A DNA stretch of 64,000 bases, taken from assembly GCA_002347605.1 (NCBI GenBank), contig DDXN01000001.1, positions 9,701 to 73,700 of the forward strand. Reading direction: 5' to 3'. The stretch's first letter is position 1; each line of letters opens with the position of its first letter. This document shows, one piece after another, positions 5,824-44,896 of this stretch. Origin of the DNA: Candidatus Dojkabacteria bacterium UBA2259. GTDB lineage: Bacteria > Patescibacteriota > Dojkabacteria > SC72. Below the pieces are notes generated by a model. It was not told the origin of the DNA, searched no databases, and saw only the letters and a program-made list of their open reading frames with translations. The position numbers and the translations under genes are program-made.

Positions 5824-6507
5824 ATGGAAAAACTGAAACTACAAAAAAGGGAGGTCGTTGGTAAAAAAGTAAGACATCTTAGACAGAAGGGATTAACTCC
5901 AGCTGTTGTTTACAATGCAAAAGGAGAATCAATTAATACCTTAATGAGCAACTCTGATGCAGATTGGCTATACAGAAATACTACATCAACAACGATATTA
6001 GATACTCAATTAGACAAAGACTCGTACAAAACATTAGTAAAAGAATTTAGCATTAATCCTGTTACCGAGGAAATTAATCATGTATCTCTCTTTCAAATAG
6101 ATGAGAATGCTCCAATGGTATTTACAATACCTTTCAATCTTACTGGTATCTCCCCTGCAGTTAAGAATAACTTAGGAGTATTAGTAAATGTTTTGGATAG
6201 CATTGATGTAAAATGTAAACTCTCCGAATTACAACCATACATTGAGATAGACATATCAAGTCTCGAGAACGTTGGTCAGAATATAAATGTTGATGATATT
6301 AAACTTCCTAAGGGAATGAGTTTAATAAATGACGATTTAGCGAATGCTACAATCGTAACTATTACTGAGATACAAAAGATTGAGGAAGTTGAAACTCCTG
6401 TAGCAGAAGAGGGTGTTGAGGGAGAAGAGGCCTTAGCAGAAGGAGAAGTTCCTGCAGAGGGAGAGGTTCAAACACCACAATCCACACAAGAAGAAAACAA
6501 AAAGTAA
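5824..6507 (+). CDS. rplY: Ribosomal protein L25 / general stress protein Ctc
   Basis: N-terminal L25 fold (LKLQKREVVGKKVRHLRQKGLTPAVVYN), then a Ctc-like C-terminal domain and an acidic tail. Confidence 0.85.
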   Translation: MEKLKLQKREVVGKKVRHLRQKGLTPAVVYNAKGESINTLMSNSDADWLYRNTTSTTILDTQLDKDSYKTLVKEFSINPVTEEINHVSLFQIDENAPMVFTIPFNLTGISPAVKNNLGVLVNVLDSIDVKCKLSELQPYIEIDISSLENVGQNINVDDIKLPKGMSLINDDLANATIVTITEIQKIEEVETPVAEEGVEGEEALAEGEVPAEGEVQTPQSTQEENKK

Positions 6508-6547: not shown

Positions 6548-7489
6548 ATGATATCGATAGTTATTACATCTTGGAAAGAACCAGAAACAATAGGGAAATG
6601 TATAAGGTGTATTGCAGATAGAAAATACTCTGGTTTAAATAAACCTTTCGAAATACTACAGATATCTCCTGATAAAGAAACCCTAGATGCCGGATTATTA
6701 GAAGCAAAGAATCTTAATCTTTCAAATACAGAGTATATACAAATTCAAGATCCGAGAAAGGGAAAACCTTCTGCGCTTAACTTAGCTTTTAAGAAGGTAA
6801 AGGGAGAGATAATTATTCTCACTGACGGAGATACATATTTCGAAAAAGATGCAGTAAAAAATCTTCTCATACCATTTAAGAATAAAAATGTCGGGGGAGT
6901 AAGTGGAAGACCGGTATCACAAGACCCACTAAATAACATGTTCGGATACTGGGGACACCTACTCTCTGATTCTGCTCATCATAGAAGATCTCATACAATG
7001 TCTAAGGTTAAAGATACTGAGTACCATATTAGTGAGAAGACTTTTTTCCCACTGAGTGGGTATATTTCGGCTATAAGGAATTTGGAAATAATTCTACCTG
7101 AAAATGTCCTCATTGATGATGGCTACATTTCTTATGCAATCAGAAATCTTGGGTTTGAGATAGCCTATACGCCCAAAGCAATCTCTTATGTAAAATTCCC
7201 CCAGAACATGAGTGATTATATGAAACAAAAGATAAGAGATTTAAGTGGTTTCATACAATTAAAGAAATTTGGATTATTTATTAGAGATAAACAAACAAGA
7301 AGTTTCTGGATTGAACTACAATATGGATTATGGGTATTACTATATGCTAAGAATTTAAAAGAGTTTTTTTGGTCTCTCTATCTCTTTCCTATCAGACTAA
7401 TCGCATGGATTAGATCTTTTTGGAGAGCAAGAATTCTTAATCAAGATTTACCTAAAACTGGATGGGAACGCATCGAGAGTACAAAGTAG
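6548..7489 (+). CDS. Family 2 glycosyltransferase
   Basis: IVITSWKEPETIGKCIRCI and ILTDGDTYF (DxD) are GT-A/GT2 motifs. Hydrophobic C-terminal segments are present. Confidence 0.7.
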   Translation: MISIVITSWKEPETIGKCIRCIADRKYSGLNKPFEILQISPDKETLDAGLLEAKNLNLSNTEYIQIQDPRKGKPSALNLAFKKVKGEIIILTDGDTYFEKDAVKNLLIPFKNKNVGGVSGRPVSQDPLNNMFGYWGHLLSDSAHHRRSHTMSKVKDTEYHISEKTFFPLSGYISAIRNLEIILPENVLIDDGYISYAIRNLGFEIAYTPKAISYVKFPQNMSDYMKQKIRDLSGFIQLKKFGLFIRDKQTRSFWIELQYGLWVLLYAKNLKEFFWSLYLFPIRLIAWIRSFWRARILNQDLPKTGWERIESTK

Positions 7490-7565
7490 CTTCTATTTAC
7501 AATTTCAATATATACTTTAAGATATGTTATCATCCTTAATATCTAACATTTATTAGTAGAATATC

Positions 7566-8475
7566 ATATCTAAACGACCAGTTGCATTCATAACGGGAAT
7601 AACAGGCTAAGATGGATCATATTTAACAGAATTACTATTAGAAAAAGGTTATGATGTTCATGGTATGGTAAGAAAAGCCAGTAATTTCAATACTCAAAGA
7701 TTAGATTCTATCTACAAGGATCCACATGAGTTAGATTCGCATCTTTTTTTTACATTTTGGTGATTTAGCCTCTTCTTCTGTTGTCGATTATCTAATCAGA
7801 CAAATACAACCCAACGAAGTATATAATCTCGGCGCACAAAGCCCACAGAATGAAGATACTCCGTTCTATCCTAGATCTCCATATGGATGTGCGAAGTTAT
7901 TTGGGTATTGGGTTACTAAAAATTACAGAGAAAGTTTCAATATGTTCACATGTAATGAGATACTTTTTAATCATGAATTACCTAGAAGAGGAAAAACTTT
8001 TGTCTCTAGAAAAGTTACACAGGCAGTTGTAAATATCAAATTAGGTAAACAAGAATGTGTATATATGGGAAATATGGACTCCAAAAGAGATTGGGGATAT
8101 GCAAAAGATTATGTAGAAGCTATGTGGCTCATGTTACAAAGAGAAAAACCTGATGATTATGTAATATCTACAGAAGAGACACACTCTGTAAGAGAATTCG
8201 TCGAATTATCATTTAAGTATGTCGACATAGATATTGGATGGTAAGGGAAGGGGTTGGATGAGATAGGTGTAGACAAAGCAACTGGGATAACTAGAGTAAA
8301 AATTGATGAAAAATATTTTAGACCTGCAGAAGTAAATTCCCTTATGGGAGATTCTTCTAAAGCAAGAAAGCTTCTTAATTGGAAACCAAAGGTATCATTC
8401 GAACAATTAGTAGAAATGATGGTTAAGTCTGATTTAGAAAATGAGACCAAAGAGGATACAAAACATCAATTCTAA
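7566..8475 (+). pseudogene. gmd: GDP-mannose 4,6-dehydratase pseudogene (degraded start, nonsense codons, frameshift, internal deletion)
   Basis: Conceptual translation gives (I)[48 protein letters not shown]...FGDLASSS...NLGAQS/...[63 protein letters not shown]...[17 protein letters not shown]...[19 protein letters not shown]...[37 protein letters not shown]. This is a clear GMD sequence, but ATA replaces ATG at 7566 and there is an in-frame TAA at about 7608. A frame break occurs after a T-run near 7745, about 50 codons are missing after NLGAQS, and there is an in-frame TAA at about 8244. ORF-track pieces 7850-8032, 7942-8244 and 8254-8475 are fragments of this pseudogene. Confidence 0.8.
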
Positions 8476-8489
8476 TTAAGATAGGCTAA

Positions 8490-8957
8490 TTACCATCTAA
8501 AATGTGCAAATGCTTTATTCGCTTCCGCCATTCTCTCAACATCATTCTTCTTCTTAATAGCATCTCCCTCTCCGTTATATGCATTTACCATTTCAACTTC
8601 GAGTAACTTCTCAAAGGATTTACCTGTTTTTGATCTTGACATATCAACAAGCCATCTTACAGCTAAAGTCTCTTGCCTTCTTGGACTAACAGGAACTGGG
8701 ACCTGGTAGTTTGCACCACCGACTCTCCTTGATTTAATCTCAAGTGCAGGCCTAACGTTATCAATTGAGGTATGAACAAACTCAATTACAGGAGAGCTCA
8801 CTTTCTTAGCACCAGACTCAATTGCTTCATACACAAGCTCTTGGGCAATTGACTTTTTCCCTCCTTGCATAACCTTATTGATTAGTCTCCCTATAACCTC
8901 ATCGTTATACTTACTATCTTTTGCAATTATTCTTCTTTTAGATCTCTTACCTCTCAT
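8490..8957 (-). CDS. rpsG: 30S ribosomal protein S7
   Basis: MRGKRSKRRIIAKDSKYNDEVIGRLINKVMQGGKKSIAQELVY, full-length S7. Confidence 0.95.
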   Translation of the reverse strand: MRGKRSKRRIIAKDSKYNDEVIGRLINKVMQGGKKSIAQELVYEAIESGAKKVSSPVIEFVHTSIDNVRPALEIKSRRVGGANYQVPVPVSPRRQETLAVRWLVDMSRSKTGKSFEKLLEVEMVNAYNGEGDAIKKKNDVERMAEANKAFAHFRW

Positions 8958-8975
8958 TACTTATTTCTTAATATA

Positions 8976-9392
8976 TTATTCCTCTTTTGGTTTTTTGGCA
9001 CCATACTTAGATCTAGCCTTCTTTCTACCTTTTACACCAGCAGTATCATACTTACCCCTTACTACAATATATTTAACACCTGGTAAGTCTCTTTTTCTAC
9101 CTGCTTTAACCATTACTACTGAGTGTTCCTGAAGATTGTGTCCCTCACCTGGTATATATGCAGTTACTTCCATTCCATTTGAAAGCCTTACTCTTGCAAC
9201 CTTACGAAGTGCTGAGTTAGGTTTTTTAGGAGTCATAGTTTTAACTTGAATACATACAGCCCTCTTAAACGGGTTATTAACTCTTTTATACCTATTCTTT
9301 AAAGGATTAAAATTTGTAGCTAAGGCGATATGTTTCCTTTTCTCTTTCTTAGCTTCCCTAGGTTTTCTTATCAACTGATTAATAGTCGGCAT
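8976..9392 (-). CDS. rpsL: 30S ribosomal protein S12 (with N-terminal region insertion)
   Basis: [10 protein letters not shown]...[42 protein letters not shown] is the S12 core. A ~25-aa insertion follows the N-terminal segment. Confidence 0.95.
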
Positions 9393-9417: not shown

Positions 9418-12400
9418 TTAAATTTTAATCTCTTCTAGATCCTTTATCTCTGTTAGCGCAGCACTCGCTCCAGATGGAATCCTTCTTCCAATTATTACAT
9501 TCTCTTTCATACCTCGAAGGAAGTCTGTCTTACCAAGAATTGCACTATTAGTTAAAACTCTTACCTGCTCTTGGAATGACATAGCCGAAAGGAAGCTTTC
9601 TGTATACAGTGCAGAGGCTTTAATACCAAGTAATTTTGGAACTATTCTAGCTTTTCTCTGTCCCTTATCTACAAGTATTCTGTTTTTTACATCTGATACA
9701 AACCTATTTACCATTGATCCAACCAAATACTCGGTATCCCCTGAGCTCATAACTTTTCCTAATCTTGCCATCTGTCTAATAATTACCTCAATATGAAGGT
9801 CATCAATTGCAACAGCTTGCTCATTGAAAACTTTCTGTACTTGATCAAGTATGTACTTTTGTGCAACCTGAAGACCAGCGACCTCTGCTAACTTCTTAGG
9901 GTCAACTGCACCACCTACAAGTTGTGTACCTGCCTCAATCTCTTGGCCATCATGAACCAAAATCTCAATATTTGGTAAAACAGATACGCTCTCTTCTGCT
10001 TTAACTGAGCCCGAAAGAGTTAATACTCCTCCCTCTATTTTCACATCACCCTCAAACGGTGCCTGTTTTTCCATCCCCTCAGAATCAATATATATAGCTT
10101 GACCACCCTTTACCTTAGCTCCATCAGTAACCAATACACTCTTAGCATCAGAAACAACTTCTTCTTTTATCATATCTCTCTTTCCTACAATTGTTATTGT
10201 TGCGGAATCATCTTCTGCCCTATCTATATGTACCTTTCCACTAATACTGGATATTTCGGCTTCTGCTTTTGGAGACCTTGCTTCAAACAACTCTTCAATC
10301 CTAGGCAATCCTTGTGTTATATCTGTGGTCTGAACACCTCCTTTATGGAATGTCTGCATAGTCATTTGGGTACCAGGTTCACCAATGGATTGAGCAGCAA
10401 TTACTCCAACAGCTTTACCCATTTCTATCTCTTCACCATTTTCCAGATTAAGACCGTAACACTTCTTACACATTCCTAAGGGTGATTTACATAGAATTGG
10501 TGTTCTAACAGATACCTCTTCAATTCCCTCATTGTTTATTTTTTCTGAAAGCTCTCTTGTAATCTGTTCGTTCTTTTTGATTATGACATTTCCTTTGGAA
10601 TCTTTTAAATCCTTTGCAACTACTCTTCCAAACAATCTTTTGTCAAATGGCATTCTTCTATCATCACTTCTTCTAATTGGGAATCCGTCTCCTTCATATC
10701 CACAATCGTCAACCCTAATTATTACATCATGTGCAACATCGACTAATTTTCTAGTTAAATAGCCTGAAGAAGAAGTCCTTAAAGATCTATCAGCAATACC
10801 TTTTCTTCCACCATTTGCTGAAACAAAGTATTCAAATGCATTAAGCCCATCTCTATAGTTTCCCTTAATTGGAAGTGGGACCCAATTTCCTCTAGAATCC
10901 CTAACTACACCTTTAATTGTTAATACCTGTCTTGCCTGAATCTTTCCACCATTTGCCCTTGATTCAACCATTTCATATACAGGATTATTCTTGTCCAATG
11001 TCTTCCATGCTTCATCTGCTAAATCAGAAGCAAAGTCATTCCACATCTCTGTAGAAAGATTAATCTTCTCTTTCTCAGTAATCAGTCCTTGAAGATAGTT
11101 TTCCTGGAGTTGAATATCCTTCTCTTCCATCTCTTTAATCTGAAGTTTTACATCAAAATCTACCTTACAATCTTCAGTACCAAATGAGAAACCAAGGTTA
11201 GTAGCAAATTTAAATCCCATTTCTTTGAGATTGTCTAAAAGCTCAACTACTACTTCTAAAGGATATTTATCCTTTATGCCTTCAACAATATGTGAGATTG
11301 TTTCTCCACTAACTCTTTCGTTAACAAATGGGTATCCTTGTGGCATGATACTGTTGAAAATACATCTCCCAACAGAAGTACTTACTACTTCTTCACCGAT
11401 TTTAACAAGTATCTCCTCACTTATACTAATAATCTCTCTTTCATATGCTTTTATTGCTAAATCAACTGAACCAAAGATTCTTGGTTTTTTACTCTCGTTT
11501 TTGTCAGTCATTAGGTAGAAACCAATTAACATATCTTTTGCTGGGGTAGCTAATACCTCGCCATTAGATATATTAACAATATTTCTAGATGCCATAATAT
11601 CTCTTTTAGCCTCTTCTAATGCCTCTTGGGTTAGAAGTACATGAACAGACATTTGATCTCCATCGAAGTCGGCATTGAAAGCTTTACATACTAATGGGTG
11701 TAACCTAATAGCTTCTCCCTCAACTAGCTTAGGATAGAAGGCTTGAATACTATATTTGTGTAGTGTAGGCGCACGATTCAGCAACACAGGTTTCCCATCT
11801 ATGACCTTTTCTAAGATATCCCATATCATATCCTCTTCCTCTTCTATCATGTCTTTTGCAACCCTAACATTTGGTGCAAACTCTTTATCTAATAGCTCGT
11901 GTATTACAAAGGGCTTGAACATCTCTAGTGCAACAGACTTTGGGATACCACACTGGTCTAATTTCAAGCTAGGGTCTCCAACAATAACGGCACGGCCAGA
12001 GTAGTCAACTCTTTTACCTAGAAGATTCTTTCTAAAGATTCCCTTTTTACCTCTTAAATCGTCCGTAAGTGATTGGTATGGTAATCTCTTACTGTTCATC
12101 ATAGCCTTAGATGGCCTATGAGAGTTATCTATTACAGCATCCACAGACTCTTGGAGCATTCTTTTCTCATTTCTTAATATTACATCTGGTGCTCCTATCT
12201 CAATCAATCTAGCTAACCTATTATTTCTGTTAATTACCCTCCTGTACAAATCATTTAAATCAGAAGTAGCAAATTTACCCCCTGAGAGAGGAATAATTGG
12301 CCTTAACTCTGGTGGAAGTACTGGCAGAATCTCAATAACCATCCAACTTGGGTCAATACCATTTTGATTAAAACCTTCTAGATACTGTATTCTCCTTATT

Positions 12401-13302
12401 GTAGAAAGTTTTTTATCTCCTTTCTCTTTCTTAACATCCCTTCTTAATCTTTCTAACTCTTCATCAACATTAAGATCTTTTAGAAGTTTCTTTACTGCCT
12501 CTGCACCCATCATCGCTGTAAAGAAAAGTAGCTCTCTATCATACAGATCAATATATTCATCCTCCGTTAATACTGACCCTATTTCAACTTTTTCAATAAT
12601 CTGCTGTAATTTAGAGTAGAAGTTATCAACCTCTTCCTCTCTCTCTGCGAAATCTTTTCTTACCTTTGCAACCGCCTGTTTTTTTCTGTGATCTAACTGG
12701 TTAATCTTAAAATCTGTTCCTCCCTTTTCCTTTTTGGAAGCTTTGATATCTGCATCGTATGTAGCCTCTGTTGCTTTTAACTCCTCTTCTAACTCAACCT
12801 TTAGGTCATTAAATTCATCTTTCTTTAACTTCTCAATCTTTGATACCATATCCTTTCTCTTGTCCTCTTCAATCTCTACCACCATATATCTTGTGTAGTA
12901 TATTACAGACAAGAGTTTCTTATGTGACATATCCAAAACGATAGACATCTTGTTAGGAATCCCATATGCAAACCAAACATGAGCCACAGGAACAGCTAAC
13001 TTGATATGGCCCATTCTCTCTCTTCTTACATCCTTAGTAGTAACTTCTACACCACACTTATCACAAACTATTCCCTTATATCTAATCTTTTTATACTTAC
13101 CACAGTAACATTCATAGTTTTTTGTAGGACCAAATATCTTTTCACAGAACAAACCATCTGGTTCAGCTCTAAATGTTCTGTAGTTGATTGTTTCAGCTTT
13201 TGTTACCTCTCCATATGACCAATCCAGTATCTGGTCAGAAGAGGCTAACGTTAGTCTTAATGCATCGAAATCTTCGAATGCGTTTTTAGTATGATTATTC
13301 AT
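9418..13302 (-). CDS. rpoC: DNA-directed RNA polymerase subunit beta-prime
   Basis: 1294 aa. Zn-binding CYCGKYKKIRYKGIVCDKCGVEV, the NADFDGD catalytic loop, and trigger-loop/bridge-helix regions are present. Confidence 0.97.
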   Translation of the reverse strand: MNNHTKNAFEDFDALRLTLASSDQILDWSYGEVTKAETINYRTFRAEPDGLFCEKIFGPTKNYECYCGKYKKIRYKGIVCDKCGVEVTTKDVRRERMGHIKLAVPVAHVWFAYGIPNKMSIVLDMSHKKLLSVIYYTRYMVVEIEEDKRKDMVSKIEKLKKDEFNDLKVELEEELKATEATYDADIKASKKEKGGTDFKINQLDHRKKQAVAKVRKDFAEREEEVDNFYSKLQQIIEKVEIGSVLTEDEYIDLYDRELLFFTAMMGAEAVKKLLKDLNVDEELERLRRDVKKEKGDKKLSTIRRIQYLEGFNQNGIDPSWMVIEILPVLPPELRPIIPLSGGKFATSDLNDLYRRVINRNNRLARLIEIGAPDVILRNEKRMLQESVDAVIDNSHRPSKAMMNSKRLPYQSLTDDLRGKKGIFRKNLLGKRVDYSGRAVIVGDPSLKLDQCGIPKSVALEMFKPFVIHELLDKEFAPNVRVAKDMIEEEEDMIWDILEKVIDGKPVLLNRAPTLHKYSIQAFYPKLVEGEAIRLHPLVCKAFNADFDGDQMSVHVLLTQEALEEAKRDIMASRNIVNISNGEVLATPAKDMLIGFYLMTDKNESKKPRIFGSVDLAIKAYEREIISISEEILVKIGEEVVSTSVGRCIFNSIMPQGYPFVNERVSGETISHIVEGIKDKYPLEVVVELLDNLKEMGFKFATNLGFSFGTEDCKVDFDVKLQIKEMEEKDIQLQENYLQGLITEKEKINLSTEMWNDFASDLADEAWKTLDKNNPVYEMVESRANGGKIQARQVLTIKGVVRDSRGNWVPLPIKGNYRDGLNAFEYFVSANGGRKGIADRSLRTSSSGYLTRKLVDVAHDVIIRVDDCGYEGDGFPIRRSDDRRMPFDKRLFGRVVAKDLKDSKGNVIIKKNEQITRELSEKINNEGIEEVSVRTPILCKSPLGMCKKCYGLNLENGEEIEMGKAVGVIAAQSIGEPGTQMTMQTFHKGGVQTTDITQGLPRIEELFEARSPKAEAEISSISGKVHIDRAEDDSATITIVGKRDMIKEEVVSDAKSVLVTDGAKVKGGQAIYIDSEGMEKQAPFEGDVKIEGGVLTLSGSVKAEESVSVLPNIEILVHDGQEIEAGTQLVGGAVDPKKLAEVAGLQVAQKYILDQVQKVFNEQAVAIDDLHIEVIIRQMARLGKVMSSGDTEYLVGSMVNRFVSDVKNRILVDKGQRKARIVPKLLGIKASALYTESFLSAMSFQEQVRVLTNSAILGKTDFLRGMKENVIIGRRIPSGASAALTEIKDLEEIKI

Positions 13303-16300
13303 TCTCTATGACCTCCTCAGACTTTTTAGAAATTAATTCCATATTTAAACAGAGAGCGTTTAGCTCTTTTATTAATACTTTAAAAGATTCTGGAACATTT
13401 ACACTCTCTATCTTCTCTCCATGAATTATAGCTTTGTAAGCACTAGACCTACCCTTTATGTCATCAGATTTAATTGTTAACATTTCTTGCAAAGCGTAAG
13501 GTGCACCATGAGATTCAAGTGCCCAGACTTCCATTTCTCCAAATCTCTGTCCACCTCTCTGAGCTTTTCCACTTAAAGGCTGTTGTGTTACTGCAGTATA
13601 TGGTCCAGTGGATCTAGCATGAACCTTTTCATCAGCAATATGGTGTAACTTTAATATATACTTCATACCTACTGTAACCTTTCGTGGGAATTTCTTACCC
13701 GTTCTACCATCGTATAGATCTGTTTTTTGTTCAATTTTATACCCCTGCTTCTTCATTTCCTTTTCTAACCACTCCATATTTACTTCCTCAAAAAGTGGGA
13801 ACGCAAATTTATCCTTAAGAAGTTTCGCATACAGTCCGAAGTGAACTTCCTCTGCTTGACCCATGTTCATTCTTTTTAAGAAAGTAGGTGTAAGAACAAT
13901 ATCAACTGGTTCCCCATCTGCTGTAAAAGGCATATCCTCAATTGGGCGAATTGCAGAAACAGTGTTTTTATCCCCATGTCTACCTGATATTTTATCTCCA
14001 TAACCTAATTTTTTAGTATCAGCAACCCATATCTTTACCTCTTCTAACACTCCAGGTGGTAATTTGTCTCCCTTGTTTGCAGAGAGTCTCTGAGAGTGTA
14101 TTACAATTCCTTCCTCTCCATGTGGTAATCGAAGCGAGTTATCTCGGACATCACTTGCAGACTCACCAAAGATTGCTCTAAGCAATCTTTCCTCAGCTGT
14201 TAATTCTTTTTCTCCCCTTGGTGCAATAACACCAACAAGAATGTCTCCTGCCTTTACTTTCATTCCTTCTCTTACTATTCCTAACATATCTAATTTTTGT
14301 AAAATCCTATCATTAACATGTGGAATATCAGCTGTAATTAACTCAGGTCCTAACTCTGTATCTCTTACTTCAACCTTATGCTCTCTAATGTTTATGGATG
14401 TTAAAAGATCATCTCTAACAATTCTTTCAGAGATAACCACAGCATCCTCATAGTTATACCCTTCATAGAACATTAAAGCTGCCCTAAGATTTATACCAAT
14501 AGCTAATTCACCTCCTACACATGTAGGTCCATCAACTATGGCATCTCCTTTTTTAAATTTCTGACCCAGTTTTACTGCTGACTTCTGTGAGAAAGACCTG
14601 TTATCATTTGTTCTGTAGAAGTTAACTAATTTGTAATCCTGTATCCCATTCTTTTTGTATTTAACAGTCACCCTGTTTGCATCAACATACGTGACCTCTC
14701 CATCGTCTATTGCAAATACTGACCAGTTAGATTGTCTTGCAACAATTTCTTCAACCCCAGTCCCAACTAATGGTGCCTCCTGTTTAACTAAAGGAACTCC
14801 CTGTCTCTGCATATTAGCACCGGCTAGTGCTCTCATCGCTTCGTCATGAGAAACAAATGGAATTAAAGCCATACCTAAACCTGCCTGTTGATATGTTAAT
14901 ACATCTACATGACTAACAAGATTAACATCCTCTAAAATGAAATCTCCTGCGTGTCTTACAGGAACTAATAGCTCAAGTATGTTGTTGTATTCATCAGTAT
15001 TAACAGATGGAATACTAATATATTTATCCTCTTCATCCAAAGCATCAAAGTAATCAACCTCTTCAGAGATGAAGGGCTTTACTTTAAGTGTCTTAATATC
15101 TTTTTTAGCAGTAATTTTTTCAGACAATTCTTTTGTAATCATTGTCCCACTCTTTGCGATTCCTTTTATATCCTCATCTAATATCCTGTTTAAGACCTCT
15201 GTTTTGGTATTCTTTACACTCTTTTTTACTCTTCTGTATGGAGACTCTAAAAATCCATACTCATTTACTCTTGCAAGAATGGAAAGCTGTGTAACTACAC
15301 CTATATTTGCACTCTCAGGACTTGTTACTGGGTCAAATTTCGCATACTGAGAGTTATGAACCTCACGAATTGAAAAGGTTGCCCTCTCTTTGACAATACC
15401 ACCAGGACCAGCAGCTGTAACTTTCCTTTTATGCTCTAATTCAGCTAGAATATTTGTTTGATCCATAAATGCAGAAAGCTGATTTGCACCAAAGAAAGAC
15501 TGAATGGAAGCTGCAATAGGTTTTGTACCAACTAACATAGATGGAGTAACCTTTGCATCCTGTCCATACAAACTCATTTTATCTTTGATATTCTTCTCTA
15601 ATCTTCTAATACCAGCAAGTAACTGTCTCTCTAATACTTCACCCACACTTCTAATTCTCCTATTAAAGAGATGGTCTATATCATCTGGTGCATCTACACC
15701 ATTATTTATTCTTATTAATTTCTTTACTATTAATATGATATCTTCCGGATACAAAACTGCTTCATCTGGTTTATTTACATCGTATGATGTTCCTAATTTT
15801 CTGTTTAACTGATATCTTCCAATTTTACCCAAATCAAACTTTCTTTTATTAAAGAAATTGCTCTTAATATATTTTTCTGCACTCTCTATGGTAACGGATT
15901 CGTCTGGTCTTAATTTGTTGTAAATACTAATAATTGCATCCTCTTTGCTCTTTGTAAAATCTCGAGCTAATGTAGCCTCTATATATTTGTACTCCTCATG
16001 TGTATCCACATCTTTAAAAAGTTTAAGAATCTCCTGATCACTCTCGTAACCAAGAAGTCTTAAAAATTCAGTAACTAATACCCTCGGTCTTTTAGGTAAT
16101 ATTCTCATTGAGATAACATTGTATTTATTTGTTTCTATCTCATACCAAGGACCTCTTCCAGGCATAAGTCTTGCTTTATACAAAGTTCTGTATGGAAGAA
16201 CATCTGCCTCTTCAAAGAGAACTCCCTCGGCTCTGACTATCTGGTGTGTAACAACTCTTCGAACACCATTAACTATAAAGGAACCATCATCTGTCATCAT

Positions 16301-16648
16301 TGGTAAATCTGCAACAAAAATCTCTTGCTCTTTAATCTCTCCTGTCTTGTTGTTTAGAAGTTGAACTGTTGCATATACAGGAATTTCATAGGAAAGCCCC
16401 TTTGCTAAAGCTTCCTCTATACCTCTGTACGGATCTCCATATCTGAAAGATTTGAATTCCAGTGTCCACATCCTCTCCATTGTGTCCTTTACTGGGTTGA
16501 TTTCCTCAAAGAGTCTATCAAAACCTCCGTCATAAAAATCTTTGAACGAAGATTTCTGAGCTTCTATTAGACTGGGTATCTCGAATGAAGAAGAGAAGCC
16601 TTTTCCGAGATTCAATCTAGAGGCTCTATTTCGCTTGGGTTCTATCAT
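13295..16648 (-). CDS. rpoB: DNA-directed RNA polymerase subunit beta
   Basis: 1117 aa. Rif-region and beta signature blocks are present (GPGGIVKERATFSIREVHNSQY..., KLHHIADEKVHARSTGPY). There is an 8-nt overlap with rpoC. Confidence 0.97.
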   Translation of the reverse strand: MIEPKRNRASRLNLGKGFSSSFEIPSLIEAQKSSFKDFYDGGFDRLFEEINPVKDTMERMWTLEFKSFRYGDPYRGIEEALAKGLSYEIPVYATVQLLNNKTGEIKEQEIFVADLPMMTDDGSFIVNGVRRVVTHQIVRAEGVLFEEADVLPYRTLYKARLMPGRGPWYEIETNKYNVISMRILPKRPRVLVTEFLRLLGYESDQEILKLFKDVDTHEEYKYIEATLARDFTKSKEDAIISIYNKLRPDESVTIESAEKYIKSNFFNKRKFDLGKIGRYQLNRKLGTSYDVNKPDEAVLYPEDIILIVKKLIRINNGVDAPDDIDHLFNRRIRSVGEVLERQLLAGIRRLEKNIKDKMSLYGQDAKVTPSMLVGTKPIAASIQSFFGANQLSAFMDQTNILAELEHKRKVTAAGPGGIVKERATFSIREVHNSQYAKFDPVTSPESANIGVVTQLSILARVNEYGFLESPYRRVKKSVKNTKTEVLNRILDEDIKGIAKSGTMITKELSEKITAKKDIKTLKVKPFISEEVDYFDALDEEDKYISIPSVNTDEYNNILELLVPVRHAGDFILEDVNLVSHVDVLTYQQAGLGMALIPFVSHDEAMRALAGANMQRQGVPLVKQEAPLVGTGVEEIVARQSNWSVFAIDDGEVTYVDANRVTVKYKKNGIQDYKLVNFYRTNDNRSFSQKSAVKLGQKFKKGDAIVDGPTCVGGELAIGINLRAALMFYEGYNYEDAVVISERIVRDDLLTSINIREHKVEVRDTELGPELITADIPHVNDRILQKLDMLGIVREGMKVKAGDILVGVIAPRGEKELTAEERLLRAIFGESASDVRDNSLRLPHGEEGIVIHSQRLSANKGDKLPPGVLEEVKIWVADTKKLGYGDKISGRHGDKNTVSAIRPIEDMPFTADGEPVDIVLTPTFLKRMNMGQAEEVHFGLYAKLLKDKFAFPLFEEVNMEWLEKEMKKQGYKIEQKTDLYDGRTGKKFPRKVTVGMKYILKLHHIADEKVHARSTGPYTAVTQQPLSGKAQRGGQRFGEMEVWALESHGAPYALQEMLTIKSDDIKGRSSAYKAIIHGEKIESVNVPESFKVLIKELNALCLNMELISKKSEEVIENE

Positions 16649-23916: not shown

Positions 23917-25125
23917 ATGGATATCTCAATACCAACAAAGTTCCTTGAAAAAATACTACAAATTGGAAATCTCAGTATCTCATCTCAGTATGATAAATAC
24001 TTAAATTATTGGCCACTATTCCTTTTCGGATTACTACTCTCCTTCCTGTTATTACCCATAATTGGAAAAATCGCAACAAAATTTGGTATTACATACAAAC
24101 CAAGAACAAAAAGAAGAAATAGGGAGTTTGATAATCCCGAGAAAGCCCTCCATGACAAGGAAACTCCCGCATTGGGAGGACTTGCAGTAACAATACCCGT
24201 ATTGATACTAATCCCTATACTCTTTAGATTAGATCCCTTTACCTTACCTATTTTCCTAGCTATAGCAGTTCTTGTTATTGGCTCTGTACTAGACGACATC
24301 TTTAACCTACCATCAAAAGTTCAACTTGGATACCAAATCCTAGCTGCTGGAATAATTGCTTTCTCTGTATTAGATCTATCCCATGTTAGCTTTTTTACCA
24401 ACGATTTTCTTAACTTAGCGGGAATAAGCTGGAGTGCCAAGATTTTCTCCTTCCCAATCTCATTTGTATTCCCAGGAGATTTAATACTCCTAGGTTGGAT
24501 ACTACTCTGTATTAACTCTGTAAAATGGGTAGGAGGCTCTCCAGGTTTGGTAGAATCCTACTCCCTAGCAATCTTCCTTCTCATCTTTGTCCTTGGTATA
24601 AGTACTTTCTCATTATTTTCATCAAGTTTAAGCATATTAATATCTGGATCTTTAATCTCTCTGTTGTACTTTGCATTTCCACCTCCTAAGATTATGTCTG
24701 GTTCAAGTGGAAAATCCATCTACGGTTTTCTAATCAGTGTACTGGCACTACTAAGTGATGCAAAATTCTCAACAACAATTATGCTACTAGCATTACCAAT
24801 AATTGATGCTTTTTACGTTATTATTTACAGATATATAACATACAAACCAAAGAATATCTTAGAACTAATGAAGATAAATGATACCTCTCATTTACATCAC
24901 CAATTGCTTAAACTTAATTTCTCGAACAGGCAGATTCTCCTCATAGAAACATCCTTTTCTCTGCTTGTTGGTTCCTTTGCAATCCTTTCAACTGGAGCAT
25001 TAAGATACTTCGCTTTGATATTTGGAATAGCCTTGGTAATCGTGTTTGTTGTATATATAAACTACAGGGCTAGAATGAAGGAGAAAGACAAAAAAGAGTC
25101 TCCTGAATCAAAATACTCATACTAA
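23917..25125 (+). CDS. Polyprenyl-phosphate N-acetylhexosamine-1-phosphate transferase, MraY/WecA (GT4 family)
   Basis: Polytopic protein with ALGGLAVTIP, the DDIFNL aspartate-rich motif and a later HHQL region typical of MraY/WecA-type transferases. The mid-region is low-complexity S/L-rich. Confidence 0.65.
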   Translation: MDISIPTKFLEKILQIGNLSISSQYDKYLNYWPLFLFGLLLSFLLLPIIGKIATKFGITYKPRTKRRNREFDNPEKALHDKETPALGGLAVTIPVLILIPILFRLDPFTLPIFLAIAVLVIGSVLDDIFNLPSKVQLGYQILAAGIIAFSVLDLSHVSFFTNDFLNLAGISWSAKIFSFPISFVFPGDLILLGWILLCINSVKWVGGSPGLVESYSLAIFLLIFVLGISTFSLFSSSLSILISGSLISLLYFAFPPPKIMSGSSGKSIYGFLISVLALLSDAKFSTTIMLLALPIIDAFYVIIYRYITYKPKNILELMKINDTSHLHHQLLKLNFSNRQILLIETSFSLLVGSFAILSTGALRYFALIFGIALVIVFVVYINYRARMKEKDKKESPESKYSY

Positions 25126-25156
25126 TTTCTAGACAAATCACGGTACCCTGATATAA

Positions 25157-25819
25157 TTGATATATATGAAAAAATGGAAACCTGCCCTCATAATTATGCT
25201 ACTTGTCATACTCCTTTCTGTCTTCTTTTTTTTCGTTCCTCTAGATAATATTGTTAAGAATATTCCTGTCATAAAAAGCTTTTACAAAAATACTACACTA
25301 GATATAACGACTCCAAATGGGAAAGCTACTGTAAAAATAGATGGAAAAGAGTATGGGGATACTCCTGTAAATATCACAAACCTAGTAGCTGGAACCTATC
25401 AAGTTGAATTGAATAGGACATCACAAAAAGAGGGTTTTTACAAGCCCCATTTCTTTAACATTGAACTAACGAAAAACTCAACATCAAGAATAAATATGGA
25501 GATAGGGCCTGGTGATTATCTACATGGAGTCGTCCTTTTCTACATAGAAGATAAAACTATTGAGTCGGGAAAAGGGAAAATAATGCTGACCTCTAGCGCA
25601 GATGATGCAAAGGTATATATTAACGATGAGTACTTCGATACAACCCCACTTACAAACATTGTGCTTGAAAAAGGGGAATATAGTATCAAATTAGAAAAAA
25701 CAACCTTTGAGGATTTAGAGTTCCCAATTGTAGTTAGTGCTGGTCATGTATTGAATATCAAAGGGTATCAATTCCCTCTTCCTATAACTTTTGTAACAGA
25801 GAAAAAAGATGAGCAATAA
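25157..25819 (+). CDS. PEGA domain protein (N-terminal TM anchor, two PEGA repeats)
   Basis: GKATVKIDGKEYGDTPVNITNLVAGTYQVEL and AKVYINDEYFDTTPLTNIVLEKGEYSIKLE fit the PEGA pattern. Confidence 0.6.
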   Translation: MIYMKKWKPALIIMLLVILLSVFFFFVPLDNIVKNIPVIKSFYKNTTLDITTPNGKATVKIDGKEYGDTPVNITNLVAGTYQVELNRTSQKEGFYKPHFFNIELTKNSTSRINMEIGPGDYLHGVVLFYIEDKTIESGKGKIMLTSSADDAKVYINDEYFDTTPLTNIVLEKGEYSIKLEKTTFEDLEFPIVVSAGHVLNIKGYQFPLPITFVTEKKDEQ

Positions 25820-28817
25820 AGAGGATTTAAGTAAAATTAAAGGACAAACCCCTATCTCCGTAATAGTACATGGAGGCAATTATATATCTTTCTTACTCGC
25901 AAAAACCCTTCTTGAACAGGGTAGCCATGTTGTAATGATAGATAAATACACAAATACCTCAAAACAGTATTTTACTGAGTTAAAAAAGACTGGAAGAGTC
26001 AGCTTCATAGATTTTAAAGGTCTTAAATCCTTCTATGAAAAAATTGCGAGGGTAGACTACCTCTACTACATGCTTGGCGAAAAGGTTGAAGGAAGTAAAA
26101 ATGTTGATAGTAAAGACTTTCTTTCAGAAACTGACTATCTTAACCAAAGCTTAACATGTGCTAACAAATACAAAGCGAAGATGTCACTAATTACCTCTTT
26201 GAGGTTAAACAGAGAGCTTTCAAATAGAATAAACAACGAGAAAGATGGAAAAACAAAACCATACTCCCCACTTGAGTTACAAAGGTATGGAGAGAACTAT
26301 ACTGCAGAGTATGTAGACAAAACAAAAGCCAATTTACGAATAATTAGATTAGGAACAGTAATTGGGAAAGGAGTAAATCAAATATCAGATGATACCTTAG
26401 ATAAGCTATTTACCGATGCAACTCAAAGACACCAAATTGATATCGAGGGAGAGGGTTTAGAGATACACAACATTATTCATGAAAGTGATGCAATATATGG
26501 AATACTTAAATTAACATTCTCGGATGATACAAAAGGGGAGGTAGTATCTCTCTGTAATAAGAACGATTACTCAACTCTTTCGATTGCATATAAATTACTT
26601 GAGCTAGATGTTGAAGCAAAGGCTATAAAATTTGTTGAAAGAGAAGATAGTAGTATGGTACTTCAAGATCTCTATGTCCCAGCACCAAACGCTTCTGAAT
26701 ATGGATGGAAACAGAATGTCTCCTTAGAAGAAAGTACACTTGACCAGGCTAAGGCTTACTACGAGAAATCAGATAAAAAGTGGGAAGGAGACAAAACAGA
26801 GGGAGTATCAAAATACAAGGTCCAGGAAGATACAACAAATGTTTCCAAAACCAAACTCGGAAACATGCTTGCCTCTCTTATCAAGCCCTTTAGAGTCCTC
26901 ACTAACCCTAAACAGCTTTTTAAAAAGATTGACTATTTAAAGATATTAAAATGGGTATCACTTTCTGCACTATTTCTTTCCTTTGTATACTTCTTTTTGG
27001 CACCATTAATTAGTATCTCTTTAGGTGGAATCTTAATATACAGACAAGAAAAATCCCTAGAGGAGTCCATCTCTAATCTCGATTTTGATAATATTGAAAA
27101 AAGTACTTCCTCTCTTTCAAAAAATGTCTCTAAAATTGAAAACAGTTTAAATCGATTGTTTTGGGTATTTGTAATAACAGACCTAAGAGGTGAATATACA
27201 AACCTCTTCCAGGTTGTCCAGGGAACTAAATATATTGCAGAGAGTGGAAAGGATTTGGTTGTAGGATTAAAACCTTTAGGACAATATATTAAAGATTTTC
27301 AACCATCAATACGATTAGAAAACAGCAAGCCAGAGACAGTAGAGGAGTACAACCAGTATTTAGAATCTATCGATGACAACAAATATCTCATAAAAGAGGG
27401 AATATACAAAATGTCTCTTGCTCAAAACCTAATTACAACAACCAATACAAGTAACTTCCCACCCTTTTTAAAGAATTTTGTGTTTGATTACAAAGAGTTG
27501 GTTACAAATATTGACAATATAGTTAAACCCTTAGAAAAAGTCTCTCAGTTTCTACCTGATATATTGGGATTAAATGAAAGAAAAAGATACCTAATACTAC
27601 TTCAGGATAACGGAGAGATAAGAAGTACAGGAGGAAGAATATCTAGTTACGCTATTGTAGCAATAGAGAACGGCCAGATAAGAGAGCTTTACGTTGATGA
27701 CGCATACAATGCACAAGCGATACTAAATCTTAAAGGCTACTACTACAGACCACAAAACTCCCTAGTCAGGGCACTTCCTAGCACTCCATTTGCCCTACCT
27801 TTGGTAAACTGGGATCCAAACCTTGATAATGTGCTTCTCTCTTCAGAACAGTTTATCTATGACCTTGGAAAAGGAGACTCTCTTGATGGAGTTATTACTC
27901 TCGACATAGTCTTTTTACAAAAACTCTTAGATAAATGGAATGGTATTCAAGTTCCAGGAGAAAGCGAACTAACAACCTCAGAAACTCTTTACTCAAAAAT
28001 ATTCGAAACATACTCAGAGGAGGGACCAAATACTCCAAGTAAATCTACATTTCTAACAGACTTCTTTAACGCAGTAATCACAAAGATATTCTCAACCAAG
28101 ATAACGGATAGTAAAGATATTTACAATACAATATCGGAGACAATTGAAGAGAAACATATCCTTTTCACCTTTAAAAACTCAATGGCCAGATCCTATGCCG
28201 ATGACAGAGGATTCGATGGGAATTTAGATGCCAAATTCCAAAGTGCCCCAATTAATATTGATTGGAATTGGGGAAATAACAAAGCTAATCTGTATATTAA
28301 GAAAAATCATACACTAGATATATATATAAAGGATGAGAATACAATTGACTATACATACCAAATTGCTATACAAAATGACTCAACAAAAGAAGAGTACCCA
28401 CAAGGAACATACAAAAACTATGTAAGAATATATATACCATACAGTGCAACAGTAACTGGAATAAAGGGGATTACAAATAACAAGTATGATGTATACGAAG
28501 AGGGTGGATACAAAGTAATTGCTGGGTGGTTTAATATCCCAATTAAAGACACTTCAATATTAGAAATAAAGTACAGGGTATCCAATCAGAGTAATGATTC
28601 TAACTTCCTTTTAACTAAAGATGAAACTCATTACAAAATGGATATAAATATATACAAACAGCCTGGAAGTAGAAAAGATGCATATAATCTCTCAATTAGT
28701 TATCCAACTGCATGGGTAATTGAAAGTAGTGATGGATTAACAAGAATAGAAAACAATATAAACAGAAGGTTTGAACTATCCTCAGATCAATATTTCTATC
28801 TATCTTGGCAAAGATAA
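25809..28817 (+). CDS. Large membrane-anchored protein: N-terminal Rossmann/NAD-binding epimerase-like domain, TM, C-terminal DUF4012-like domain
   Basis: 1002 aa. N-terminus VIVHGGNYISFLLAKTLLEQGSHVVMID is Rossmann-like. A TM lies at about aa 380-405. The long C-terminal region resembles the DUF4012 proteins common next to cell-envelope genes in CPR genomes (pattern-level call). Confidence 0.5.
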   Translation: MSNKEDLSKIKGQTPISVIVHGGNYISFLLAKTLLEQGSHVVMIDKYTNTSKQYFTELKKTGRVSFIDFKGLKSFYEKIARVDYLYYMLGEKVEGSKNVDSKDFLSETDYLNQSLTCANKYKAKMSLITSLRLNRELSNRINNEKDGKTKPYSPLELQRYGENYTAEYVDKTKANLRIIRLGTVIGKGVNQISDDTLDKLFTDATQRHQIDIEGEGLEIHNIIHESDAIYGILKLTFSDDTKGEVVSLCNKNDYSTLSIAYKLLELDVEAKAIKFVEREDSSMVLQDLYVPAPNASEYGWKQNVSLEESTLDQAKAYYEKSDKKWEGDKTEGVSKYKVQEDTTNVSKTKLGNMLASLIKPFRVLTNPKQLFKKIDYLKILKWVSLSALFLSFVYFFLAPLISISLGGILIYRQEKSLEESISNLDFDNIEKSTSSLSKNVSKIENSLNRLFWVFVITDLRGEYTNLFQVVQGTKYIAESGKDLVVGLKPLGQYIKDFQPSIRLENSKPETVEEYNQYLESIDDNKYLIKEGIYKMSLAQNLITTTNTSNFPPFLKNFVFDYKELVTNIDNIVKPLEKVSQFLPDILGLNERKRYLILLQDNGEIRSTGGRISSYAIVAIENGQIRELYVDDAYNAQAILNLKGYYYRPQNSLVRALPSTPFALPLVNWDPNLDNVLLSSEQFIYDLGKGDSLDGVITLDIVFLQKLLDKWNGIQVPGESELTTSETLYSKIFETYSEEGPNTPSKSTFLTDFFNAVITKIFSTKITDSKDIYNTISETIEEKHILFTFKNSMARSYADDRGFDGNLDAKFQSAPINIDWNWGNNKANLYIKKNHTLDIYIKDENTIDYTYQIAIQNDSTKEEYPQGTYKNYVRIYIPYSATVTGIKGITNNKYDVYEEGGYKVIAGWFNIPIKDTSILEIKYRVSNQSNDSNFLLTKDETHYKMDINIYKQPGSRKDAYNLSISYPTAWVIESSDGLTRIENNINRRFELSSDQYFYLSWQR

Positions 28818-30530: not shown

Positions 30531-31160
30531 TTAATCGTAAAAGTTTACATTCTCTATCTGATATATCCTTAATCCAAGAGAGTAATCAGTATTCCCTCGT
30601 TCATCAACATCACTGCTATATGAAATACTTTCGATAACTGGAAACATTGGTAATGCCTCTAAATCTTTAAGAAAACTTATTAGATTTATTCTATTCCCTG
30701 AAACTGATAATCTCACTGAGTATGGCTTTAAAGCTGATGTTTTTAATTCTGTTTCCGTTTTTTGTGATTTCTTCTGATCCGAAAATCCAATGGATTTAAG
30801 TACAAAATTATTTCTTGTTACAATCGCATCTATGTTTGCTAAAAACAAACTAAAATTCTGGGATGTAGGAAATATTAACGTTAAATTCTCAAATGTCTCT
30901 CTATTTTCCGTGTACTGTCCATCTAAACTTGTTAATGCTTCTAGTTTACTCTTGAGTGCAGATGATATTTGCTCTTTTTTCTTTATCTCAGAGTTAATAT
31001 TCTTCACTGTTTTAAACGTTGGAACCAGGGCAAACACAATTAATAGTATCGCCACTATATATGTTAAACCTGTGAAAATCATCTCTCTTTTCTTTCCTGT
31101 ACCACCTTTAACCATTTTCACATATTCAACTTTTCTTGCACTACTTTCTAATGTCCCCAT
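30531..31160 (-). CDS. PilO-like type IV pilus assembly protein
   Basis: Short cytoplasmic N-terminus, one TM, a coiled-coil, and a C-terminal alpha/beta domain. Immediately downstream of, and 1 nt from, the PilN-like gene. Confidence 0.45.
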   Translation of the reverse strand: MGTLESSARKVEYVKMVKGGTGKKREMIFTGLTYIVAILLIVFALVPTFKTVKNINSEIKKKEQISSALKSKLEALTSLDGQYTENRETFENLTLIFPTSQNFSLFLANIDAIVTRNNFVLKSIGFSDQKKSQKTETELKTSALKPYSVRLSVSGNRINLISFLKDLEALPMFPVIESISYSSDVDERGNTDYSLGLRIYQIENVNFYD

Positions 31161-31161
31161 A

Positions 31162-31719
31162 CTATTCTATTTCCTTAATAACAGTAAAATTAATAGATAC
31201 ATCATACTCATTCCCAACCTTGTCTATACTAACTCTCACATCACTATAATATGTATTATTCTTTAAAGAATCCTCATAGTCCCTTAATGCTTTGAAATCC
31301 GAAGTGGTTAGAGAAAGAGTTACTCTTTGACTACTAATTGAAATACTCTCAACATTCATTGTAAGAGGAATCCCATTTATAATCTCTGATATTAGGTTAG
31401 AATTAAGCTCTTGTCCCTCCTTAATAACTTTTATGTCACCCAAAAGAGTTTGGAGATTTTCATACTTAATAACATTCTTTTTCCATGTTTCGTTTTCAAG
31501 TACCTTTACCTGAGCATCAATCTTAGATGTTAAATCATTGTTTTTCCCATCATTTATTAATCTGAAAGCGAAAGCCCCCAGAACTATCGCTTGAACACCC
31601 ATTAACATCCATTTCCCAATAGTTGTAAGCCACGAAAAAGAGGTCTGTAAAACAGAATCTGTACTTCCTGCAGGTTCTAAGAAATTAATAGATTTTGTTT
31701 GATCTTTTGCTTTTAACAT
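31162..31719 (-). CDS. PilN-like type IV pilus assembly protein
   Basis: N-terminus contains SINFLEP, which resembles the conserved PilN INLLP PilM-binding motif. This is followed by one TM and a periplasmic coiled-coil/ferredoxin-like region. Confidence 0.5.
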   Translation of the reverse strand: MLKAKDQTKSINFLEPAGSTDSVLQTSFSWLTTIGKWMLMGVQAIVLGAFAFRLINDGKNNDLTSKIDAQVKVLENETWKKNVIKYENLQTLLGDIKVIKEGQELNSNLISEIINGIPLTMNVESISISSQRVTLSLTTSDFKALRDYEDSLKNNTYYSDVRVSIDKVGNEYDVSINFTVIKEIE

Positions 31720-42878: not shown

Positions 42879-43397
42879 TTATTCCTCGCTCTCTTCCTCT
42901 TTTTCTTTACTATCTGAATCTTTCAATATCTTTTTATCACTGACTGGAATAATCTTTACTCTTCTGTCTTCTCCCTCTCCAACGCTCTCTGTTTTAATAT
43001 CATCAAATACCTGAAGTGTAACATGAACTGTTCTCCTATCTGATGGACTCATAGGCTCTAACTCAATAGGCTCTCCTAGTATTCTTGCATCATCTGCTTT
43101 CTGCATAGCAATACTCTCTATTTTTTTGTTTCTCTCCTGCTTGTACCCACAAACATCTAAGAGTACTCTGTAGTTAGTACCCTCCGCTAACTTCTTTCTC
43201 AAGATCATACTAAATATATATTGAAGAGATTCCAAGTGTTTACCACGATTTCCAATTAAATACCCTAGGTTGTCTCCAGAAAAAGAAACTTTAATATATG
43301 AAACTCCATCTGTCTCTTCAATTTTAAGTTCATATATTGCATCTATATCTAAAAATGAAAGTAGGGAATCTAATTCTTTTTTAATAGTTTCTTCCAT
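42879..43397 (-). CDS. jag: Jag/R3H RNA-binding protein (KH + R3H)
   Basis: KH-like IGNRGKHLESLQYI and the R3H region. Position downstream of yidC is canonical. Confidence 0.8.
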   Translation of the reverse strand: MEETIKKELDSLLSFLDIDAIYELKIEETDGVSYIKVSFSGDNLGYLIGNRGKHLESLQYIFSMILRKKLAEGTNYRVLLDVCGYKQERNKKIESIAMQKADDARILGEPIELEPMSPSDRRTVHVTLQVFDDIKTESVGEGEDRRVKIIPVSDKKILKDSDSKEKEEESEE

Positions 43398-43414
43398 CTA
43401 AATATTTATTAAAA

Positions 43415-44263: not shown

Positions 44264-44315
44264 ATTATTATTAAGAAAAATATTAGAAATCTAGAGAATT
44301 ATACACTAAACTTAA

Positions 44316-44883: not shown

Positions 44884-44896
44884 ATGCTAGTATACA

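Follow-up and report, generated by a model that had tools for sequence, protein, structure and literature searches.

A gmd relic, probably a recent unitary pseudogene, between a glycosyltransferase gene and rpsG in Candidatus Dojkabacteria

A short decayed gene lies between a glycosyltransferase gene and rpsG in the window, the whole 64-kb stretch of DNA that was analysed, from a bacterium of Candidatus Dojkabacteria, also known as WS6, in the candidate phyla radiation (CPR). Upstream of it on the same strand are rplY and an intact GT2 glycosyltransferase gene, both part of the Dojkabacteria backbone. From the other side it is met by rpsG and rpsL, which in turn lie downstream of rpoB and rpoC (Table 1). 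Pfam searches gave the domains listed in the table and agreed with the names that a sequence-only reading of this DNA had assigned to rplY, GT2, rpsG and rpsL. We found no account of this locus in the literature.

Table 1. Genes, lesions and intergenic features at the gmd locus, in window coordinates
Feature	Position	Strand	Details
rplY (ribosomal protein L25/TL5)	5824..6507	+	PF01386, PF14693; backbone gene
GT2 glycosyltransferase	6548..7489	+	PF13641, PF00535; intact backbone gene
GT2-gmd spacer	7490..7565	+	no terminator hairpin; MFE -4.1 kcal/mol
gmd relic (GDP-mannose 4,6-dehydratase; probable unitary pseudogene)	7566..8475	+	910 nt, against 1062 nt intact
Lost start codon	7566..7568	+	ATG>ATA; ATG in L009, L011 and L095-L100
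Nonsense codon 1 (TAA#1)	7608..7610	+	CAA(Gln15)>TAA within Rossmann motif GITGQDGSY; shared with variant strain L009
8-T homopolymer	7744..7751	+	+1 frameshift; 7 T in L009, L011 and L095-L100
Junction of in-frame 153-nt (51-codon) deletion	7834..7842	+	within short direct repeat GCACAAAGC
Nonsense codon 2 (TAA#2)	8242..8244	+	TAA; CAA in L095, AAG in L011; CAA, AAG or GAA in relatives
Strongest local hairpin of relic	8321..8366	-	-15.5 kcal/mol; ~125-170 nt downstream of rpsG stop
Original gmd stop codon, retained	8473..8475	+	aligned with L011 and L095 stops
Gap between gmd stop and convergent rpsG stop	8476..8489	.	14 nt; -0.5 kcal/mol
rpsG	8490-8957	-	PF00177; convergent on relic
rpsL	8976-9392	-	PF00164; convergent on relic
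rpoC	9418-13302	-	RNA_pol_Rpb1 domains; upstream of rpsL-rpsG
rpoB	13295-16648	-	RNA_pol_Rpb2 domains; upstream of rpsL-rpsG

The relic was identified from a repaired translation, in which one T was dropped and both TAA codons were read as Gln. This translation was matched by PF16363 with E=5.3e-116, in two pieces with a profile gap between them. Solved Gmd structures matched it with E values from 1e-112 to 1e-83, and here too the match falls into two parts with ~50 chain residues left out between them; human GMDS (6gpj) gave E=1e-112 and the E. coli enzyme (1db3) E=2.4e-108. Compared with an intact 353-aa Gmd from a sister species (P0001, from L011), the relic shows 92% amino acid identity over aligned columns, and its nucleotide identity to the intact orthologues of L011 and L095 is ~89-90% across gmd. 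The domain match and the alignment to intact orthologues bear out the sequence-only reading, which had placed a decayed gmd at 7566-8475.

The relic reads in frame 1 as ISKRPVAFITGITG*DGSYL... up to the 8-T run and in frame 2 (...LHFGDL...) from there to the terminal TAA. Most of the Rossmann motif is recognisable, but the Gln codon of GITGQDGSY (GxxGxxG) has become TAA. The YxxxK catalytic motif is kept as YGCAK, as is the C-terminal substrate-binding domain. The two ORFs of 100 aa and 73 aa reported here by the gene caller are pieces of the former reading frame. Rfam and ARAGORN returned no RNA gene at 7400-8600, their matches in the window being three tRNAs and one tmRNA elsewhere, and an RNA gene hidden in the relic was ruled out on this basis.

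Each of the lesions that the sequence-only reading had described was recovered: the ATG changed to ATA, the two in-frame TAA codons, the frame break at a poly-T run and an internal deletion put at ~50 codons, which proved to be exactly 51 codons (153 nt) and in frame. The start codon is ATG in the intact orthologues and in the variant strain L009, and the relic has no alternative start because an in-frame TAG lies 9 nt upstream of the ATA. At the homopolymer the ancestral T7 reading is CAT CTT TTT TTA CAT (HLFLH), as against 8 T in every window-strain assembly that covers the run. The second nonsense codon also occurs in a slightly different strain, L190.

The missing 153 nt are flanked by GCACAGAGT...TCACAAAGC in the intact gene of L011 and by GCAAAGCC...ACAAAGCC in that of L095. 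These flanking direct repeats are imperfect, 8-9 nt long and still seen in the intact genes, and we infer that the deletion arose by slippage or microhomology between them. The 51 deleted residues (columns 105-155 in an alignment with ten homologues) include the conserved YQASSSEMFG, and the PDB alignments of the repaired translation break at the same site. The QAS[ST]SE segment holds what we take to be, from the E. coli enzyme, the catalytic Ser/Thr and Glu of Gmd. The deletion is thus predicted to take out the catalytic Ser/Thr-x-Glu part of the active site. Since this segment is deleted, even a read-through product would be no dehydratase, and judged from its sequence the relic cannot give rise to a dehydratase-active product.

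The canonical str operon of most bacteria has the order rpsL-rpsG-fusA-tufA, and the sequence-only reading had seen a synteny break in the window, where fusA-tuf would be expected. Comparison with relatives did not support this. In the eight relatives in which the side beyond rpsG is visible (L015, L016, L097, L101, L102, L103, L187 and L188), fusA-tuf follows rpsG in none, and the window holds no EF-G- or EF-Tu-sized ORF with a GTP_EFTU domain. The locus resembles the canonical operon in that rpsL and rpsG are adjacent and lie downstream of rpoB-rpoC. It differs in that the Dojkabacteria operon ends at rpsG, whereas fusA-tuf follow in the canonical one, and in that gmd-less Dojkabacteria have a predicted bidirectional terminator after rpsG. 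The strand flip at rpsG is an old clade-wide arrangement, unconnected with the pseudogene.

The Dojkabacteria backbone runs dnaK-grpE-hrcA (minus strand), rplY-GT2 (plus strand) and rpsG-rpsL-rpoC-rpoB, with the block from dnaK to GT2 conserved in every context retrieved, the rplY-GT2 part present in 10/10 contexts and rplY upstream of GT2 in every relative examined. Orthologues of GT2 number in the hundreds at 62-70% identity, and across the whole range of 62-90% all have 310-314 aa; one at 90% carries the name Candidatus Dojkabacteria at NCBI. For S7, the best matches listed among species-representative genomes were a Candidatus Dojkabacteria MAG at 69% and another MAG at 65%. GT2 converges head-on on rpsG with no gmd between them in L016, L101 (GCA_002419125.1), L102, L103, L187 and L188, and the metagenome that yielded the window strain is also the source of L102. 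In L097 an intact gmd meets rpsG; in L015, rpsG is followed by a hairpin and then by a Wzy-like fragment, yidC and jag. The sequence-only reading had also proposed an inserted envelope-sugar cassette that is now eroding. This stands for gmd, which looks both inserted and eroding, but not for its neighbours: rplY and GT2 are not part of a cassette, because they form the backbone in all ten contexts and GT2 is intact (dN/dS 0.09).

In two sister species, the very same position is occupied by an intact gmd of 353 codons. In L011, GT2 is followed by gmd of 353 aa and then by the 3' end of rpsG, which the last 43 nt enter. The order rplY-GT2-gmd-rpsG with an intact gmd is found in L095 (GCA_018056375.1, contig JAGPFQ010000003, Ca. 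Dojkabacteria), L096, L097, L098 and L100. Similar to the relic, the gmd genes of L011 and L095 have rplY-GT2 upstream and a convergent rpsG downstream, with an upstream spacer of 76-78 nt and a downstream gap of 14 nt. Unlike the relic, they consist of 353 uninterrupted codons and evolve at dN/dS 0.05-0.10.

Substitutions were assigned to branches among three taxa (window, L011 and L095), each singleton difference going to one branch; TAA#2 was left out of the gmd counts as a three-state column. The window branch of gmd carries 12 nonsynonymous and 1 nonsense against 16 synonymous changes (dN/dS 0.20), compared with 10 against 52 on the L011 branch (dN/dS 0.05) and 15 against 36 on the L095 branch (dN/dS 0.10). 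The window branch differs from the two intact branches (Fisher p=0.019). GT2 has 9 nonsynonymous against 27 synonymous changes on the window branch, giving the dN/dS of 0.09 cited above, and on this branch alone the N:S ratios of gmd and GT2 do not differ significantly (p=0.12). Radical replacements in gmd on the window branch include G182E (CNGILF), S189L (NHESPRRG), G243R, G254E (STGETH) and D308N, at invariant or near-invariant columns; most replacements on the intact branches, by contrast, are exchanges of the V/I or K/R type. The substitution patterns indicate that purifying selection acts on the intact gmd of the sister species and that constraint has been relaxed on the window branch. 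Since dN/dS on that branch is 0.20 and not ~1, gmd was probably under constraint for most of it and died recently. Taking 0.075 as the functional rate and 1 as neutrality, the time after inactivation would cover, very roughly, the last seventh of the branch. The loss may reflect a GDP-6-deoxyhexose surface modification that had become dispensable, perhaps after loss of a partner enzyme.

In ~10 independent metagenome datasets, exact-sequence look-up returned the 1-kb relic region without a single base difference as far as the contigs extend, some of them breaking off within it. These datasets were located by exact match to two sequences, the 73-aa ORF at the tail of the relic and the protein of the adjacent GT2 gene. 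The identical set comprises SRR636559 (two assemblers: ENA, Logan), JGI 3300002446, 3300002219 and 3300002220, SRR1313243, SRR636597, ERZ27315067, ERZ27315072 and ERR1950817. A further dataset, JGI 3300000032 (L002), differs from the relic region by one N only.

A variant allele was found in L009 (Logan ERR14064755), where seven positions out of 2.2 kb differ from the window. This allele still has the ATG and 7 T, yet shares the codon-15 TAA and the 153-nt deletion with the window. Four further substitutions in the adjacent spacer mark L009 as a distinct strain and not an error. Because it carries the deletion and TAA#1 without the start loss and the frameshift, the first pair preceded the second. 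The L009 contig ends at window position 7887, short of TAA#2, so that this ordering covers the other four lesions. In the sister lineage, L099 differs from its siblings in gmd by AAA>TAA only. The difference may be a true polymorphism or a mistake in the sequence, and it hints that gmd is dispensable there too.

We considered whether the stops and the frameshift might be sequencing or assembly errors in a gene that is really intact. The T8 lesion does lie in a homopolymer, an error-prone context, and the L002 assembly has frameshift-like splits in dnaK and rpoB. However, the same 1 kb recurs base for base in ~10 datasets and three assembly pipelines, which excludes at the assembly level the artefact that the sequence-only reading had allowed for. 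Homopolymer errors cannot account for the 153-nt deletion or for the two stops, which are base substitutions, and T7 travels with five linked substitutions, so that T7/T8 is a strain difference. The chance that the gene is intact is therefore negligible. Hardly more credible is a gene kept functional by recoding, in which TAA would encode an amino acid and the T-run would direct a programmed +1 frameshift. TAA#1 replaces CAA (Gln) and TAA#2 may have done so (CAA in L095, AAG in L011), and the shift site is a slippery homopolymer. Against this, the relic lacks a start codon, the catalytic Ser/Thr-x-Glu segment has gone with the 51 deleted codons, invariant residues carry radical substitutions with a raised dN/dS, and the intact orthologues have CAA and T7. 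TAA is also the commonest stop among the 52 window ORFs of at least 100 aa (31 TAA, 15 TAG, 6 TGA), and it ends the neighbouring rplY and rpsG. Reassignment of TAA or an alternative genetic code was ruled out on these counts; the code is standard. It is also unlikely that the relic is a redundant duplicate fragment and that the genome has an intact gmd at another site. In other CPR bacteria gmd does occur within glycan clusters, and the search for a second copy covered the 64-kb window. That search found neither a second gmd-like sequence nor an fcl/rmd partner gene there, and the relic is no duplication fragment, since it still spans the gene from its start to its stop. Its position matches that of the sole gmd observed at this locus in the sister species, and because of this positional orthology with intact genes we regard it as the original copy. 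We conclude, with a probability of about 0.9, that the gmd at 7566-8475 is a lineage-specific accessory gene recently turned into a unitary pseudogene by multiple hits.

Between GT2 and rpsG, gmd occurs only where GT2 is at least 88% identical to that of the window (L011, L095-L098 and L100). The GT2 tree groups the gmd-positive lineages in a single tight clade, with the gmd-less lineages next to it. The next-closest Gmd proteins, at 63-65% identity, lie in large glycan-synthesis clusters elsewhere, and two of their three contexts (L012 and L014) have an adjoining 311-312-aa epimerase/reductase-like gene. A scan of metagenome contigs with P0001 gave 70% as the best among the matches listed, which did not include the known close relatives.

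The intergenic regions differ between the two groups. In the gmd-less relatives the GT2/rpsG spacer is 42-78 nt long and holds a hairpin of -12.9 to -14.3 kcal/mol. An example is AAAAGGAAGG-TTTC-CCTTCCTTTT, and the order of A-tract, GC-stem and T-tract makes it a textbook bidirectional terminator as predicted from sequence. The gmd-bearing clade has an AT-rich spacer of 76-78 nt before gmd and 14 nt between the gmd and rpsG stops, and no bidirectional terminator hairpin is present in either window spacer or in the L095 spacers. Because the insertion would have removed the shared terminator, rpsG transcripts must run antisense into the relic. The strongest hairpin that they would meet there has orthologous 45-mers of -9.4 kcal/mol in L011 and -8.7 kcal/mol in L095, and its GGGA/TCCC core is due to window-specific substitutions. 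A consensus terminator scan called no minus-strand terminator in the relic and gave counts equal to the shuffle expectation, which ruled out a canonical terminator or promoter inside it.

These data are consistent with gain followed by decay, the most parsimonious history being one insertion of one gene; this comparison of gain and loss was made by parsimony, with few lineages sampled and a midpoint-rooted tree of the GT2 gene alone. Under this history, GT2 and rpsG would originally have converged on a 42-78-nt spacer with a bidirectional terminator. On the stem of the sub-clade a single gmd with ~76 nt of upstream sequence would have been inserted between them, displacing the terminator. Two species of the sub-clade keep the 353-codon gene under purifying selection, and in the window species it is dead, the order read from L009 being the deletion and TAA#1 first and the start loss and T7>T8 later.

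A history in which gmd is ancestral at this site and was cleanly deleted several times, the window showing a loss in progress, has an outside chance. Few lineages were sampled and the tree is midpoint-rooted, and the L099 nonsense allele suggests a loss-prone gene. However, all gmd-positive loci fall in one tight clade, the gmd-less loci belong to divergent lineages (L101/L102, L103, L187/L188 and L016), and the closest outgroup Gmds sit in glycan clusters and not at this site. Clean deletions would also need to recreate the spacer hairpin, which is clearly homologous among L101, L103 and L187. We also asked whether the relic is kept because it has come to serve, where the GT2 and rpoBC-rpsLG transcription units converge, as a ~0.9-kb buffer and a new site of termination, which we regard as quite improbable. 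The terminator of the gmd-less relatives is missing in the window and the two stops are only 14 nt apart; the minus-strand hairpin at 8321-8366 has been strengthened by window-specific substitutions (-15.5 against -9.4 and -8.7 kcal/mol), and the length of the relic is unreduced apart from the 153-nt deletion. On the other side, the scan calls no terminator on that strand and its overall counts equal the shuffle expectation, and species with an intact gmd do without the hairpin. The ~29 substitutions on the branch make chance gain of a stem plausible, and recent death alone explains the kept length. That the relic might be an exapted 3' UTR evolving a replacement terminator at 8321-8366 is more doubtful still and its function speculative; chance is sufficient to explain the strengthening of the hairpin.

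The pseudogene shares full-length homology with functional Gmd (PF16363, extended short-chain dehydrogenase/reductase family; 1db3, 6gpj). It differs from the functional enzyme in lacking a start, in having two stops and a frameshift, and in the loss of 51 residues and the replacement of invariant ones. Skurnik and colleagues are said to have reported in 2000 inactivated gmd/fcl in the cryptic O-antigen cluster of Yersinia pestis. Similar to that cluster, the relic is a GDP-sugar gene for a dispensable glycan, with small lesions and its neighbours in place. Unlike it, the relic is a single inserted gene with ribosomal-protein genes for neighbours, its host belongs to the CPR, and an intermediate allele was caught in a population sample. 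As a case of stepwise gene death, it adds one more example to a well-known phenomenon.

In CPR genomes, coding densities are 76-95% (median 89%) and few pseudogenes are inferred (PMC9166423). The locus offers a reproducible case of accessory-gene death in such a genome, with little import beyond annotation. The intact state, the intermediate allele and the multi-hit relic are all in public metagenomes, which makes the order of lesions readable. For annotation, the 'GDP_Man_Dehyd' ORFs of 100 aa and 73 aa that public assemblies list are fragments of a pseudogene, and an rpsG without fusA-tuf behind it reflects the usual Dojkabacteria gene order, with no rearrangement involved.

The ENA record reads 'hydrocarbon metagenome', and the JGI names NAPDC, SCADC and MLSB presumably denote tailings from oil sands and enrichment cultures that degrade alkanes or naphtha. 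The loss is a hint that this species, as a member of hydrocarbon-degrading consortia, can do without a GDP-6-deoxyhexose surface modification.

In the metagenome contigs of the relic locus (L001–L008 and L189–L192), the relic of gmd appears in public gene calls as a pair of small ‘GDP_Man_Dehyd/Epimerase’ proteins of 100 and 73 aa, which are pseudogene fragments. Of the 13 replacements on the window branch, 8 lie within the 100-aa ORF. The relic sequence in one of these contigs, L002 (JGI 3300000032, Draft_c0001312), is the same as that of the window, despite the genes that are split in that assembly. The split genes are dnaK (304 + 312 aa) and rpoB (189 + 927 aa), and alignment to the window required five gap openings over 17.5 kb; L002 is evidently an error-prone assembly.

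A disrupted gmd was also found in one assembly of a sister species whose gene is otherwise intact. In this allele (L099, ERZ27257484, about 2630–2660), a single AAA>TAA change splits gmd into 208 + 136 aa; either the nonsense mutation arose independently or the change is a sequencing error. The T7 tract (CAT CTT TTT TTA CAT) is conserved at the nucleotide level in all intact orthologues (the L011 and L095–L100 runs), and it is at this site (window 7744–7751) that strains of the relic species differ, with T7 or T8. In principle, a homopolymer of such length could serve a surface-glycan gene as a slippage-prone switch.

The spacer following rpsG was compared between Dojkabacteria with and without gmd at the locus. 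A bidirectional terminator, consisting of an A-tract, GC-stem, and T-tract, is conserved in this spacer in the gmd-less relatives, and is missing throughout the gmd-bearing sub-clade, species with an intact gene among them. Inside the relic, downstream of rpsG, lies a hairpin of -15.5 kcal/mol, compared with -9.4 and -8.7 kcal/mol in intact orthologues, and the window-specific substitutions GAT>AAT and TTA>TCC strengthen it. The relic hairpin could be a product of chance or a nascent terminator. Species with and without the relic also co-occur, as a single hydrocarbon metagenome (ENA ERZ922796 / SRR636559) yielded two different Dojkabacteria species, one carrying the gmd relic (L001) and one, with a GT2 70% identical, that has no gmd at the locus (L102).

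Features of the window and of the post-rpsG spacer in gmd-less relatives
Feature	Sequence	Position	Strand	Remarks
Relic ORF, 100 aa	window	7942-8244		
Relic ORF, 73 aa	window	8254-8475		
Hairpin inside relic	window	8321-8366	-	
Spacer with terminator	L101	6940-6981		
Spacer with terminator	L103	6940-6987		
Spacer with terminator	L187	5940-5986		
Spacer with terminator	L016	5649-5726		
Spacer with terminator	L015	4851-4968		
Glycos_transf_4 protein	window	23917-25125		WecA/MraY-like
PEGA-domain protein	window	25157-25819		
1002-aa protein	window	25809-28817		DUF4012; weak N-terminal NAD-epimerase match
ORFs without Pfam match	window	30531-31719; 38918-40789; 49493-50182; 50409-51233; 52033-52794		E<=0.001
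jag/khpB	window	42879-43397	-	
yidC	window	43415-44263	-	
dnaA	window	45358-46830	+	
dnaN	window	47249-48376	+	
tmRNA gene (ssrA)	window	56452-56863	+	
Large serine recombinase gene	window	56823-58412	-	Resolvase, Recombinase, Zn_ribbon_recom domains
MerR-like gene	window	59093-59902	-	
DUF4379/CapR/BRCT protein	window	60005-62131		708 aa

Elsewhere in the window, the 3' end of the tmRNA gene is overlapped by a large serine recombinase gene, which is followed by the MerR-like gene and then the DUF4379/CapR/BRCT protein. Both GC (0.385) and GC skew (+0.35) reach their window maximum in the 60–62 kb bin. The region at 56452–58412, continuing to about 62900, has the appearance of a mobile element that integrated at ssrA. 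A second envelope-related gene group occupies 23917–28817. Several sizeable ORFs, one of 623 aa, gave no Pfam match at E<=0.001. The grouping of jag/khpB, yidC, dnaA, and dnaN, in which dnaA is flanked by 278 and 418 nt of non-coding sequence, probably marks 42879–48376 as the replication origin region.
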